From IMG/VR virus record IMGVR_UViG_3300045988_111857: a stretch of 18,888 nucleotides of DNA; one strand, 5' to 3'. The notes under the pieces were generated by a model. The model was not told where the DNA came from. It did no database searches and worked only from the letters and a program-made list of their open reading frames with translations. Shown here piece after piece: positions 335-18,888 of this stretch. The DNA is from a virus. Position 1 is the stretch's first letter. Each line of letters starts with the position of its first letter. The position numbers were made by a program, and so were the translations under genes.

Positions 335-363
335 ATTGTATTATTCTTATGGCATGTTATAAT
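335..363 (+). promoter_or_regulatory. Putative early promoter with extended -10 (TGtTATAAT)
   Basis: tgttataat lies at 355-363 (TATAAT 358-363 preceded by TG-n). A weak -35-like ttgtat lies at 336-341 (16-bp spacer). The site is about 75 nt upstream of the first + strand gene. A second tataat at 314-319 may be a tandem promoter. Confidence 0.55.
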
Positions 364-438: not shown

Positions 439-804
439 ATGACTACTTGGAAAATTGAAAAAACTGTTGACGGCGAAAACGAGATTATTACTATTACGCG
501 CCCACTTAATGACAAGCCCAAGAGCACCGCCTGTGTGAGCCGCACGGTAAAGGCCGGCACGGTTGCCCGCGTAAAATACGCCCGGTTTAATGATGATTTT
601 TCCGTGGATACCGGCGAACTTGTAAAACAGTTTGACGGTGTTCTTGATGCAGAAAAAGTTGTAAAAGCCTTGCATAACTCCGAACCTTGCACCAAGTGGC
701 AAGTTCTGGAAGTTCAGCCCAAAGAGGAAAATACTTTGGGAATTCCGCGCGAGGTGTTCAATGCCGTTGCAGTTCCCATTGACCGCCCGCTTTCTCAACA
801 GTAA
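439..804 (+). CDS. Hypothetical protein (121 aa), GC-rich early gene
   Basis: ATG 439 lies 8 nt after GAGGT (426-430). The ORF is open to TAA at 802-804. I recognise no family. Hand-counted GC is 50-53% in 481-600, far above the neighbouring genes. Confidence 0.7.
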   Translation: MTTWKIEKTVDGENEIITITRPLNDKPKSTACVSRTVKAGTVARVKYARFNDDFSVDTGELVKQFDGVLDAEKVVKALHNSEPCTKWQVLEVQPKEENTLGIPREVFNAVAVPIDRPLSQQ

Positions 805-888
805 ATTTTAATCGTTCCGCCGGGTTCATCATTAAAGCCCGGTTCAATATGGCATAAAAGCCAAAATAAATTAAAAGAGGGTATAAAA

Positions 889-1143
889 ATGAAAATGCAA
901 GTTGTTACAATGAAAATTGACGGCAACAATTTTAGCATCAGCAGAAAATCGACCGATACTAAAAACCGCCGCAATACCGACTATGCTAGCTGCAATATTA
1001 CAGTATTAAAGCCTATGTTTTGTTGCAAAAGCGGCTTTATCGCTTCTGGCTTTTCTAGTTTTGAAAGTCCTATTGTTGAGCATGACTTGAATAATGTCAA
1101 TGAAAGCATTGACGACTTTATAAAGGCGGTGTTTTCAAAATGA
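889..1143 (+). CDS. Hypothetical protein (84 aa)
   Basis: ATG 889 lies 7 nt after AGAGGG (876-881). The stop overlaps the next start in an ATGA arrangement. Confidence 0.6.
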   Translation: MKMQVVTMKIDGNNFSISRKSTDTKNRRNTDYASCNITVLKPMFCCKSGFIASGFSSFESPIVEHDLNNVNESIDDFIKAVFSK

Positions 1144-1532
1144 TGCTTACTACACGTAAAGAGTTGGCAGACGCCGTTATTAGTGATTATAACCGCGCCG
1201 TAAATGGTCAGTGTGAACAACTTTATAATTGTAAAGCATGGATTGTAAACCCTGACAATTCCGATTTTTTAATCTTAAAAAGCTACTCAACTATTGTAGC
1301 GGCTTTTCAACGGTCAACTGGTTTTTTGTGGGTATTTGGTTTCTACAGCAATACTACAGCAAGCCATATAGCAAAATTCCGGAATTGGATTAGACACGAA
1401 TTTCAAACCGGTTGGAGCTATCCCGTTACTGTTAGGTTGTACAATGATTCCAGAACTGGCAAGCGCGCCGCCCGCAAAAATCTAGAAGATGACTTTGCAA
1501 GCGTCATTGCAACCGCATTAAATCAGTGTTGA
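1140..1532 (+). CDS. Hypothetical protein (130 aa)
   Basis: The ATG is coupled to the upstream stop (ATGA at 1140-1143). An intrinsic terminator follows. No family recognised. Confidence 0.7.
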   Translation: MMLTTRKELADAVISDYNRAVNGQCEQLYNCKAWIVNPDNSDFLILKSYSTIVAAFQRSTGFLWVFGFYSNTTASHIAKFRNWIRHEFQTGWSYPVTVRLYNDSRTGKRAARKNLEDDFASVIATALNQC

Positions 1533-1546
1533 CCCAAAAATAAAAC

Positions 1547-1578
1547 ATGCGTTGTCTTTAATGACAGCGCATTTTTTA
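1547..1578 (+). terminator. Rho-independent terminator ending the left three-gene cassette
   Basis: A 10-bp stem atgcgttgtc (1547-1556) / gacagcgcat (1563-1572) contains one G-U pair. The loop is tttaat and a T6 run follows at 1572-1577. Confidence 0.8.
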
Positions 1579-1648: not shown

Positions 1649-1832
1649 CCTGTGAAATTCTTAACACACTTTAGTGGTTTAGAGTTCTAAAGCGCTTGTG
1701 AAATCTTTAACACACTTTAGTGGTTTAGAGTTCTAAAGCGCTTGTGAAATCTTTAACACACTTTAGTGGTTTAGAGTTCTAAAGCGCTTGTGAAATCTTT
1801 AACACACTTTAGTGATTTAGAGTTCTAAAGCG
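1649..1832. repeat. Four head-to-tail copies of a 46-bp repeat, each with a 14-bp palindrome TTTAGAgtTCTAAA
   Basis: Units start at 1649, 1695, 1741 and 1787 (exact 46-bp period). Units 2 and 3 are identical; units 1 and 4 differ at 1-2 positions. The unit is cttgtgaaatctttaacacactttagtggtttagagttctaaagcg. The palindrome in unit 2 lies at 1724-1737, with a direct half-site cactttag about 10 bp upstream. Confidence 0.95.
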
Positions 1833-1957
1833 TCCATCCGTTAAGAAAAATAGTGAGCAGGGCATTAACCTTAGCACCAACCCCGCCGCGCCGACCACCT
1901 GGGGTGTCACAAGAAGCCTGAAAATAAATCGGGGTTTAATTTCTTAAATTCAATAAT

Positions 1958-1979
1958 CCCCCTCTCCCTCTCCCTCTCT
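1958..1979 (+). repeat. 22-nt pure pyrimidine (CT) tract ccccctctccctctccctctct
   Basis: Read directly from the sequence. The tract lies about 15 nt upstream of the GAGGTGA ribosome binding site of the gene starting at 2008. Confidence 0.9.
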
Positions 1980-2007
1980 GTTATTGCTAAGAAATGAGGT
2001 GATACTT

Positions 2008-2262
2008 ATGATTACTAGAAAAGACCTTGCACCATTAAATGATTCAGACTTTGAGTTCTGGGAAAACAATCTTAAGTACAGGCAAGACAAAACTCTCTGG
2101 GCTTTATATGGATTCTGTCAGGACTTCTTTACATGGTCTTGTCCTAAAGATTATCTTGGTTGTACTTGTGACGGTTGTTTAAATCAAGAAATTTGTATTA
2201 GGTACAAGCTAACAATGAAAGCAGTTAAGCAAGAACTTAAATTAAGGGAGTGGTATAAATGA
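2008..2262 (+). CDS. Small five-cysteine protein, paralogue 1 (84 aa)
   Basis: ATG 2008 lies 7 nt after GAGGTGA; the track ORF opens at TTG 1984. The motif is C-x7-CP-x6-C-x-C-x2-C-x5-C (FCQDFFTWSCPKDYLGCTCDGCLNQEIC). The N-terminus MITRKDL resembles MTIKDL of paralogue 2. Confidence 0.7.
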   Translation: MITRKDLAPLNDSDFEFWENNLKYRQDKTLWALYGFCQDFFTWSCPKDYLGCTCDGCLNQEICIRYKLTMKAVKQELKLREWYK

Positions 2263-2748: not shown

Positions 2749-2989
2749 AGAATTGTATAATGTTAATGAAGATATGTTTGATAACTCTATTTTTGTTGTA
2801 CATAGTGAATATACCAGACCCGACTGTAGAAAATCTTGTAATGATATTATAAACGGATGTGTAATCTATCAAGATGATTACTATTCTATGCCTAAAGTTC
2901 TTAAAGGTTTGCACGTAGCAAGTTTCAGATGTTCAAGCAATGTTAGGTTAAATGATGAACCCAATAAATGGGATATTTGGGTGGTATAA
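2738..2989 (+). CDS. Hypothetical protein (83 aa)
   Basis: ATG 2738 lies 8 nt after GGAGGG (2724-2729); the track ORF opens at GTG 2729. The N-terminus MTIEELYN resembles MTLYDLFN of the 2259 gene. Confidence 0.6.
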   Translation: MTIEELYNVNEDMFDNSIFVVHSEYTRPDCRKSCNDIINGCVIYQDDYYSMPKVLKGLHVASFRCSSNVRLNDEPNKWDIWVV

Positions 2990-2991
2990 TT

Positions 2992-3195
2992 ATGACAATT
3001 AAAGACCTAGATACAGAAACTCTTACCCTACTTAATAAACTATGTGATAACTGGTATATTAAAGCCTGTCCCTCATGGCTAACACACTTTATGGATAAGG
3101 ATTGCCAAGATTGTCAGCTTAGAGAGTTGTGTTATCTTCTTGACCGTTATGATAATGATGTTAAAGAAGAGCTTATAAATAGAGGTGAGTTTTGA
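2992..3195 (+). CDS. Small five-cysteine protein, paralogue 2 (67 aa)
   Basis: ATG 2992 lies just after the upstream stop, with GGGTGG upstream; the track ORF opens at 2968. The motif is LCDNWYIKACPSWLTHFMDKDCQDCQLRELC. Confidence 0.7.
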   Translation: MTIKDLDTETLTLLNKLCDNWYIKACPSWLTHFMDKDCQDCQLRELCYLLDRYDNDVKEELINRGEF

Positions 3196-3197
3196 TT

Positions 3198-3401
3198 ATG
3201 ATTCTTCATCTTGATAAATACGATGACTTATATCTAAACCAATTAAGAATTTTTATTGCTTATTGCTTAACTGGGATACCTTGTCCACCTAGAGGATATT
3301 GTGATTCAACTTGTGGTTTGCATCAATTCTGTAATTTTATGCAGCTTGCATATATTGATGTAATTAAGGAGGAATCTAAGCGCAATGGCACAAAACCATA
3401 A
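3198..3401 (+). CDS. Small five-cysteine protein, paralogue 3 (67 aa)
   Basis: ATG 3198 lies 8 nt after AGAGGTGAG (3181-3189); an alternative TTG start is at 3192. The motif is YCLTGIPCPPRGYCDSTCGLHQFC. Confidence 0.7.
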   Translation: MILHLDKYDDLYLNQLRIFIAYCLTGIPCPPRGYCDSTCGLHQFCNFMQLAYIDVIKEESKRNGTKP

Positions 3402-6970: not shown

Positions 6971-7171
6971 TTGAAAGAAAAAGATTCTTATAGAATCAGT
7001 AGAAGAGCTACATGTCCTTATTATATTTCTCATACCACAAATTACATTCGTTGTGAGGATATGAGAGTGTCACGCCAAGAATACAACCTTAAAACCGATT
7101 GTTGCGGCCAGTATAAAAACTGTCCTCAATATAAATTTCTTACTTACCATTATTTAACAAAGGAGAACTAA
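6971..7171 (+). CDS. Cys-rich hypothetical protein (66 aa)
   Basis: TTG 6971 lies 9 nt after AGGAG (6957-6961). The product has six Cys (CP..C..CC..CP). Confidence 0.55.
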   Translation: MKEKDSYRISRRATCPYYISHTTNYIRCEDMRVSRQEYNLKTDCCGQYKNCPQYKFLTYHYLTKEN

Positions 7172-7173
7172 CT

Positions 7174-7524
7174 ATGTACACTAACAAGAAAGCATCCGCT
7201 AAGGCCACCAATTCTGCTAAGTCCGCTTCTTCCATCATCACCGATATCCGTATCTTCCCTATCAATAACAAGAAGTCTAATTGTTGTGCTATGGTTTCCA
7301 TTACACTTGCAAATGTGTTCTGCATTACTGGTATTAAGATTATGGATGGAAGCAAAGGGCTGTTTGTTGCAATGCCCAGTGCAAAGAATAAGAAAGATGA
7401 ATGGCATGATATTTGCTATCCTATTACCAAGGAATTTCGTAAAGTTATGAGCGATTCTATTCTTAATGCTTTTGATGCTTTGCAGGAAGATGAAGATGAC
7501 GATGATGAAAGTGAGGATGACTGA
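7174..7524 (+). CDS. spoVG: SpoVG-family protein with Ser/Ala/Lys-rich N-terminal extension and acidic C-terminal tail (116 aa)
   Basis: ITDIRIFPIN..AMVSITL..GIKIMDGSKGLFVAMPS..WHDICYPIT aligns by eye with Bacillus SpoVG (VTDVRLRRVN..AIASITL..DIRVIDGNNGLFVAMPS..FRDI.HPIN). The tail is QEDEDDDDESEDD. Confidence 0.85.
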   Translation: MYTNKKASAKATNSAKSASSIITDIRIFPINNKKSNCCAMVSITLANVFCITGIKIMDGSKGLFVAMPSAKNKKDEWHDICYPITKEFRKVMSDSILNAFDALQEDEDDDDESEDD

Positions 7525-7576
7525 CAAGCTCCCCAATGAATTACCACCATATATAGACGATGATTTGCCATTCTAA

Positions 7577-18767: not shown

Positions 18768-18861
18768 AGGTACGATAAATGGGACTACTAAAATGAGCGA
18801 GGTGAGCAACCGGTTAAAGGTACGATAAACGGGACTCCAAGGTTAAAGTACGATAAATGGA
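18768..18861. repeat. Three subterminal direct repeats (g)gtacgataaa(t/c)gg at the right end only
   Basis: The copies are aggtacgataaatgggact (18768-18786), aggtacgataaacgggact (18818-18836) and aagtacgataaatgg (18846-18860). Copies 2 and 3 share the extended form ggttaaag(g)tacgataaa. Copy 3 runs into the ITR. Confidence 0.85.
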
Positions 18862-18888
18862 AAAAATTGGTAAAATGTTTTGACACTA
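18855..18888. repeat. Right inverted terminal repeat (34 bp)
   Basis: This is the exact reverse complement of bases 1-34. Confidence 0.95.

Follow-up and report, generated by a model that had tools for sequence, protein, structure and literature searches.

What is the function of four near-identical 46-bp repeats in the non-coding gap that separates an immediate-early gene cassette from the replication operon of a gut phage? The repeats lie towards the left end of the window, by which we mean the whole stretch of DNA analysed (18,888 bases), and which carries a perfect 34-bp inverted repeat at both ends. Its minus strand (18211–7624) encodes phi29-type capsid, connector, collar, tail-knob and gp16 packaging proteins, and its plus strand an 839-residue polymerase that matches a PHROG DNA-polymerase family of the protein-primed type; a terminal-protein candidate is also encoded. 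The combination of terminal repeats, phi29-type genes and polymerase identifies the window, as judged from its sequence, as a complete protein-primed phi29-like podophage genome of 18.9 kb from a human-gut lineage, and the closest GenBank record is a human-faecal 'Bacteriophage sp.' fragment. A Firmicute host is indicated by strong Shine–Dalgarno sequences, a G+C content of 37%, an M23 peptidase and the presence of a SpoVG-like gene. For comparison we used 60 close relatives from IMG/VR, the polymerases of which are 92–99% identical. The early and late blocks of the window are convergent, and a consensus promoter scan places TTGACT-17-TATAAT on the late/pRNA side.

We consider it somewhat more probable than an even chance (roughly 0.55) that the repeats constitute a composite operator array on double-stranded DNA, which would control early transcription and organise the genome's left end.

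Tandem Repeats Finder returns a tract at 1651–1832 with a period of 46, 4.0 copies, 97% matches, no indels and a score of 343, which bears out the original prediction of four contiguous, near-perfect 46-bp repeats at 1649–1832. The units run head-to-tail. Units 2 (1697–1742) and 3 (1743–1788) are identical in sequence, unit 1 (1651–1696) differs from them at two bases, and unit 4 (1789–1832) at one base within the repeat (G to A at 1815) plus two junction bases when it is cut as 1789–1834; the earlier description of two identical units and two differing by 1–2 nt thus holds. The array follows the terminator of the left cassette. After it come a 175-bp leader and then the main early (replication) operon, which extends to 7524 and has 2008–2262 (plus strand, ATG at 2008) as its first ORF. 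The gap, previously put at 430 bp, indeed measures approximately that from the terminator (1547–1572) to the ATG, and 475 bp from the preceding stop codon at 1532.

Two palindromic elements recur in the units. Box 1 is a 16-bp palindrome, TGTKAA-N4-TTMACA (TGTGAA-N4-TTAACA in each unit here), located at 1651–1666, 1697–1712 and 1789–1804 in units 1, 2 and 4, respectively. Box 2 is a 28-bp pseudo-palindrome, CACTTTA-N14-TAAAGCG, located in the same units at 1667–1694, 1713–1740 and 1805–1832; its half-sites (CACTTTA at 1667–1673 and TAAAGCG at 1688–1694 in unit 1) are 21 bp apart, centre to centre, in all four copies. The centres of boxes 1 and 2 alternate along the array at distances of 22 and 24 bp. 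The original prediction had missed box 1 altogether, as well as the outer dyad of box 2, which is the conserved one, and had centred instead on a 14-bp inner palindrome, TTTAGAGTTCTAAA. This is present at 1724–1737, as a 6+2+6 inverted repeat because its central GT is not self-complementary, but it is limited to one unit type and is not conserved, since most units of the relatives have CGCTTTAAAGCG or variants at this position. The sequence CACTTTAG occurs seven times in the window against 0.9 expected, a count reached by none of 200 shuffles. The additional half-site proposed upstream of the inner palindrome is likewise real (CTTTAG at 1715–1720 against TTTAGA at 1724–1729), but its offset is 8 bp rather than one helical turn. 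Directly upstream of the array lies a further conserved inverted repeat, AGTAGTTA-AGCC-TAACTACT (1627–1646), which in the relatives reads TTAGCAGT-N11-ACTGCTAA, and which is doubled, at 48-bp spacing, in the distant phage L118 (1347–1421).

The same boxes form a second array at the left terminus (42–298). Just inside the 34-bp terminal repeat is a perfect box 1, TGTTAAATTTTTCACA (42–57), which departs at one position from the 18-bp Rex pattern discussed below. It is followed by box 1 TGTTAAATAATTAACA (91–106) with a shortened box 2, CACTTTAG-TCCA-CTAAAT (105–122), then by box 1 TGTGAAATTATTCACA (127–142) with box 2 at 141–170 (position weight matrix, PWM, score 42.6 at 141), and finally by box 2 at 207–236, box 1 at 239–254, box 2 at 251–280 and box 1 at 283–298 (PWM scores 47.4 and 43.4). 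The right half of this last box 1 doubles as a -35-like hexamer, TTAACA at 293–298; TTAACA-15-TATAAT is also found in 10 relatives. Taken at face value, such overlap of box 1 with a -35 element is the classic operator-over-promoter arrangement. The putative cassette promoter (336–363, plus strand) has an extended -10, TGTTATAAT, at 355–363; this TGnTATAAT element, approximately 80 bp upstream of the cassette ATG, is conserved in the relatives.

The two arrays, in like orientation, bracket the left cassette, which comprises this promoter, three plus-strand genes and a terminator. The genes are c1 (439–804; 121 residues; a remote homologue of phi29 p6 by profile and fold), c2 (889–1143; 84 residues), of which two divergent alleles occur among the relatives, and c3 (1140–1532; 130 residues), which carries the Pfam label DUF8033 (PF26096). 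The intrinsic terminator (1547–1572, plus strand) has a stem that is maintained by differing sequences in the relatives. The cassette of the window (439–1532) has a raised G+C content, at about 0.45 against 0.30–0.38. A p6-like gene, a small ORF and a DUF8033 gene also form the first transcription unit at the left terminus of three more distant and otherwise divergent gut phi29-like phages (L116, L118 and L120), in which c1 and DUF8033 are thus the first left-end genes.

Both boxes are restricted to these two regions. Over the whole window, box 1 has nine matches with at most one mismatch, against 0.58 expected, and all lie at 42–298 or 1651–1804; among the 60 relatives, all 143 perfect copies lie within the first 2.3 kb, the remaining 827 kb having none. 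A box 2 PWM built from the relatives only scores seven sites in the window at 34–47, all of them within the two arrays, compared with a shuffle maximum of 10. Neither the PWM nor the box 1 scan finds a box outside 42–298 and 1651–1832, and the right terminus carries no array. Copies of the 9-mer AGAGTTCTA at the right end, considered as possible motif copies, look like chance because the PWM gives no full-length match there. The right end has a repeat of its own: three direct repeats, GTACGATAAA(T/C)GG, at 18769–18862, the last of which runs into the terminal repeat. The left end lacks them, and they may represent an element of the right origin.

Comparison of the units among relatives shows which bases are kept. 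Conservation falls on the outer CACTTTA-N14-TAAAGCG and on TG..AAAT.CTTAACA, which lies upstream; positions of high information content are TTCTTAACACACTTTA, the inner TTTA-AG and CTAAAGCG, and the 5–6 bases between half-sites are variable. The TTAACA half-site of box 1 is nearly invariant (100 of 107), whereas the left half is degraded to TGACAA or TGATAA in many internal units. No link between unit type (A or B) and the c2 and c3 alleles is apparent by inspection. About nine relatives carry a 51-bp variant unit (at about 1430–1900) which replaces or precedes the first unit and reads into the remaining ones; it has a good promoter, TTAACA-16-TATGAT, in which the right half of box 1 again supplies the -35 hexamer, as well as a palindrome of its own, CATATGA-N8-TCATATG. 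At greater distance, L118 (polymerase 80%, c1 38% and c3 45% identical) keeps the order box 1, box 2, box 1 at the equivalent place, so that between the window and L118 a non-coding motif is far better conserved than c1, c3, e3 and the terminal protein (32–45% identity). Neither box is present in L116 and L120, which have the c1 and DUF8033 cassette, ordinary polymerases and a phi29-type SSB.

The original prediction had recognised no DNA-binding fold in the genome. This no longer stands for c1, for which both the profile and the predicted structure are p6-like. A profile built from c1 and its few homologues finds p6 (8pw4_A) as its top match in the PDB, with E = 0.04–0.07 and residues 35–112 aligned on 5–80. 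In that alignment, with its E-value of only 0.04–0.07, the invariant p6 residues G37 and V59 align with G and V in c1, A44 with V, and R6 with the invariant R35 of c1. The AF2 model of c1 has a mean pLDDT of 67 (78–84 in the core), and Foldseek returns the p6 structures 8pw2 and 8pw4 as its best two hits (probability 1.00; target TM-scores 0.70 and 0.65; rmsd 3.1 Å), which is the outcome of the structure prediction that had been suggested for the small early proteins. The p6 fold, which has no other neighbours in the PDB (PMC10899789), comprises a four-stranded antiparallel sheet with α1 between β3 and β4 and a short α2, and the modelled core of c1 (residues 40–110) follows this with the order E-E-H-E-H. 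c1 has an additional N-terminal β-hairpin compared with p6, and it ends ...IDRPLSQQ, without the acidic run that forms the disordered C-terminal tail of p6. From the profile and the model together, we conclude that c1 is a remote homologue of p6, the histone-like dsDNA-binding protein of phi29. Searches of GenBank phages give no match for c1 or c3, and a pattern search of IMG/VR and the JGI metagenomes gives no distant c1 homologues; these were reached via a protein collection instead.

With a p6 homologue as the first and strongly promoted gene, the repeats could serve as sites where c1 loads with high affinity and then polymerises over the left end. In this way c1 would organise the genome, assist in opening the replication origin on the left and keep early promoters silent, as p6 does in phi29 from recognition regions close to the termini. 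The p6 protein nucleates near the genome ends, with a dimer for every 24 bp, and has good affinity for concatemers of 24-bp units (PMC10899789); 46 bp is close to 2 × 24, i.e. approximately two p6-dimer footprints, and the left array begins only about 40 bp from the terminus. We nonetheless think this unlikely. Phi29 p6 recognises bendability with a 12/24-bp periodicity and does so at both ends, rather than a sequence, whereas the units here are sequence-specific dyads conserved base by base, their Fourier power (three unit types) is nil at 11.5 and 23 bp with a dominant period of 8–9 bp, and they are confined to the left end. Furthermore, L116 and L120 have c1 homologues without such repeats, and the motif is nearly unchanged in L118 despite the divergence of c1.

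A second alternative is that each unit, or at least the first, is a weak or factor-dependent promoter for the replication operon, with the TGnGAAATT or TGnTAAATT of box 1 acting as an extended -10 and a -35-like hexamer supplied by the preceding unit. No σA promoter is conserved between the terminator and the first ORF among 57 relatives; the replication operon is thus left without a conserved canonical promoter after the cassette terminator, and a start site must lie somewhere. Unit junctions in relatives read gcgaTTGACAaattc, which contains a perfect -35 hexamer TTGACA, 12–14 relatives have TTTAAA-16-(TG)TAAATT, and about nine have the good promoter of the 51-bp variant; the downstream leader also resembles a transcribed, structured RNA. 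Against this, units 2–4 of the window read TGTGAAATC, without the T at -7 that is essential, a lenient consensus scan accepts none of the units, and the candidate -10 is not conserved, whereas its palindromic partner TTAACA, dispensable for a -10, is the nearly invariant element. The boxes of the left array, moreover, lie upstream of the consensus promoter and not at it. We regard a promoter function as quite unlikely, in keeping with the original prediction that the units contain no credible -35/-10 pair; the consensus scan lists none in 1649–1832 on either strand.

The leader (1833–2007, plus strand) between the right array and the first early ORF is conserved in 58 sequences, whatever ORF follows. 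It contains a GTTAAG/CTTAGC stem with a few compensatory changes and weak covariation, a second stem, GGGG...CCCC, that is invariant, and, directly ahead of the ribosome-binding site, the C/U-rich tract CCCTCTCCCTCTCCC. A search of Rfam with the leader gives no match. Possible roles are those of a structured 5′ leader or of an anti-SD element.

Copy number bears on whether the array is simply a neutral minisatellite, expanded by slippage or unequal recombination and without function beyond that of one or two ancestral units. Across 56 genomes, arrays have one unit at 11 loci, two at 40 and three at four, and only the window has four, with copies that are nearly identical; a single unit evidently suffices in 11 relatives. 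Such an origin accounts for the extra copies, but not for the unit itself: every relative covering the interval has at least one unit, with sequence and phasing conserved. The start-to-start spacing is exactly 46 bp in 51 of 51 cases, and neighbouring units in the relatives differ at a median of 10 of 46 bases, so that the phasing has been maintained and not merely inherited. The comparison of copy number and conservation that the original prediction had called for thus reveals one to four units with the 46-bp phasing kept throughout. Since the units of the relatives have diverged and the four of the window are near-identical, the array in the window is a recent expansion, and the ancestral state is thus two old, diverged units in exact register. 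As an explanation of the locus as a whole, neutral expansion is improbable. We give very little weight indeed to the proposal that the repeats, in RNA or in single-stranded DNA, fold into hairpins that act as signals for processing, stability or replication. In its favour, a 10–12 bp stem can be drawn in each box 2, the array would be intercistronic if the terminator leaks, and protein-primed replication displaces long single strands. Against it, complementary bases face each other just as often as in shuffled data at every one of the 14 positions of 130 distinct sequences of box 2, oppositions that do not pair are conserved (A·C in 106 of 130, C·C in 69 of 130) and Rfam gives no match.

In the lack of compensatory pairing and of a conserved σA promoter, sites for proteins on double-stranded DNA fit the repeats best. 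The original prediction had offered operators, iterons or centromere-like sites; conservation, phasing and restriction to the arrays are features of protein sites, whilst iterons and centromere-like sites find no support. As candidates, iterons and partition sites were rejected, the genome being linear and protein-primed and giving no match to a Rep or ParB family.

As to what binds, the cassette proteins and the SpoVG-like protein had been put forward alongside a host factor. L116 and L120 carry the cassette without the boxes, and the cassette proteins therefore do not require the motif; since the motif is also better conserved than c1, c3, e3 and the terminal protein, the cassette proteins are less likely binders. 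From these comparisons, a well-conserved phage protein or a host factor appears the more likely binder. Searches of the small early proteins against Pfam, PHROG, NCBIfam and PDB sequences give no DNA-binding family. The DUF8033 protein c3 was considered as a p4-like regulator and rejected: its AF2 model is confident (pLDDT 83), with no meaningful match in the PDB, and against viral models DUF8033 proteins are the only matches. Four small Cys-rich early proteins with the pattern CP...C..C...C (2008–2262, 2968–3195, 3192–3401 and 6971–7171), three of them paralogous, are without a family match and are candidate zinc-dependent DNA-binding proteins.

As for the SpoVG-like protein, a substitute for the single-strand-binding protein of the phage seems a better description than an operator binder, as it replaces the phi29-type SSB and would gain a DDDLPF tip from a conserved extension in the +1 frame. 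Among four lineages compared, SpoVG-like and Phi29_SSB genes never occur together. Within 7174–7576, the SpoVG-like ORF stops at ...ESEDD-TGA, beyond which DKLPNELPPYIDDDLPF-stop can be read in the +1 frame. Of 62 loci, 48 retain this tail, L118 among them; it would end in the DDDLPF tip, which is the C-terminal motif of Bacillus-type SSB. At the junction, GAG GAT GAC TGA C, an SD-like GAGGA closely precedes a UGA-C stop, as in the prfB +1 frameshift. The gene probably undergoes a programmed +1 frameshift that yields a SpoVG-fold SSB substitute.

For the operator array that we favour, we propose the following mechanism. Each unit presents two different dyad-symmetric boxes side by side, box 1 of Rex-operator type and box 2; the left array (42–298) lies upstream of and overlaps the promoter region of the immediate-early cassette, and the right array (1651–1832) separates the terminator of the cassette from the leader that heads the replication operon. 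Sequence-specific dimers would load cooperatively on these phased sites. Candidates are a Rex-type host factor for box 1 and an early protein of the phage for box 2, perhaps joined by the p6-like protein; the identity of the binders, and whether repression or activation results, we infer only. Their loading would set the level or timing of transcription of the cassette and the replication operon, the latter being transcribed, in our preferred but unproven scheme, by read-through of the cassette terminator. The cassette promoter could be occluded at the left array, the right array could act as a roadblock to read-through into the replication operon, or the two arrays could be looped together. 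The number of units (1–4) would tune the strength of the effect, as a gain control. We count against the operator array that its period of 46 bp corresponds to 4.4 helical turns, so that successive units face different sides of the helix.

The lead to a host factor comes from box 1. Rex, a bacterial redox sensor of NADH/NAD+, binds as a dimer and is released by NADH. Its operator is an 18-bp palindrome, TTGTGAANNNNTTCACAA, with the clostridial form TTGTTAANNNNTTAACAA (PMC6391272, PMC9600882). All nine box 1 sites, of both the G and the T variant, come within 1–2 mismatches of this pattern over its 14 specified positions; eight of the nine are perfect over a 12-position core. In one copy there is overlap with a -35 hexamer, which is common for Rex sites. 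The mismatch that recurs throughout lies at the final base, C instead of A, which the abutting box 2 fixes. Box 1 further differs from Rex operators in that it sits on a phage genome in arrays of 4–5, always abutting another box, and in that its left half is weakened in relatives. Its core is also common to Crp/Fnr-type sites (core TGTGA-N6-TCACA), and Rex is therefore not the sole candidate. In view of this shared core and the weakened left halves, it seems to us doubtful that box 1 is a genuine operator of host Rex. Were it so, the immediate-early cassette and the replication operon would, in a family of human-gut phi29-like phages, both be wired to the redox state of an anaerobic host; alternatively, Rex would be titrated by the thousands of phage boxes present after replication, and fermentation genes of the host would be released from repression. 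Next to it, on box 2, a protein of the phage would then act as co-repressor or anti-repressor.

To our knowledge, transcriptional control in phi29-type phages is understood only for those of Bacillus, via p4, p6 and Spo0A. The present analysis defines a conserved and easily testable control element in an abundant, uncultured gut lineage of this type, one that keeps a p6-like protein as its first gene, and offers a concrete candidate link between early phage expression and a metabolic sensor of the host. The natural variation between one and four units is a ready-made dose series.

Among known systems, the sites of phi29 p4 are similar in that a phi29-type phage carries several phased copies of an inverted repeat with half-sites approximately 21 bp apart. 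The p4 site is reportedly an inverted repeat, CTTTTT-N15-AAAATG. Lying between promoters A2c/A2b and A3, the p4 sites act with p6 on early transcription. They number four (PMC11476376). The differences are that the units described here add a second, unrelated box, and that no p4 homologue was found by Pfam, PHROG and PDB sequence searches of the small early proteins or by structural comparison of the c3 model. In addition, as the early and late blocks are convergent here, the array does not lie in a divergent early/late control region, unlike the p4 sites. The p6 complex resembles the present system in the p6-fold protein encoded beside the arrays.

Phi29 is also said to carry boxes for the host regulator Spo0A at early promoters and near its origins, which reportedly gate early transcription and p6 complex formation by host physiology. 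This would be a precedent for a phi29-type phage with multiple sites for a host transcription factor, and a Rex operator, if box 1 is one, would be its redox counterpart. The signals differ, sporulation in one case and redox in the other, and 0A boxes are 7-mers at scattered positions, as opposed to composite units in phased tandem. The architecture, and the architecture only, further recalls OL and OR of phage lambda: two clusters of like-oriented operators, here candidate operators, flank a transcription unit approximately 1.4 kb apart. Finally, Clostridium perfringens podophage CPQ1 is similar in layout and in having a SpoVG-like gene, but it lacks an array of this kind and its genes at the left show no homology. 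Two of its early promoters (160–215 and 618–650) each contain a different palindrome, of 18 bp, TTGACAC-N4-GTGTC(A/G)A, into which the -35 hexamer falls, and so share with box 1 a design principle (7-4-7) built on different half-sites.
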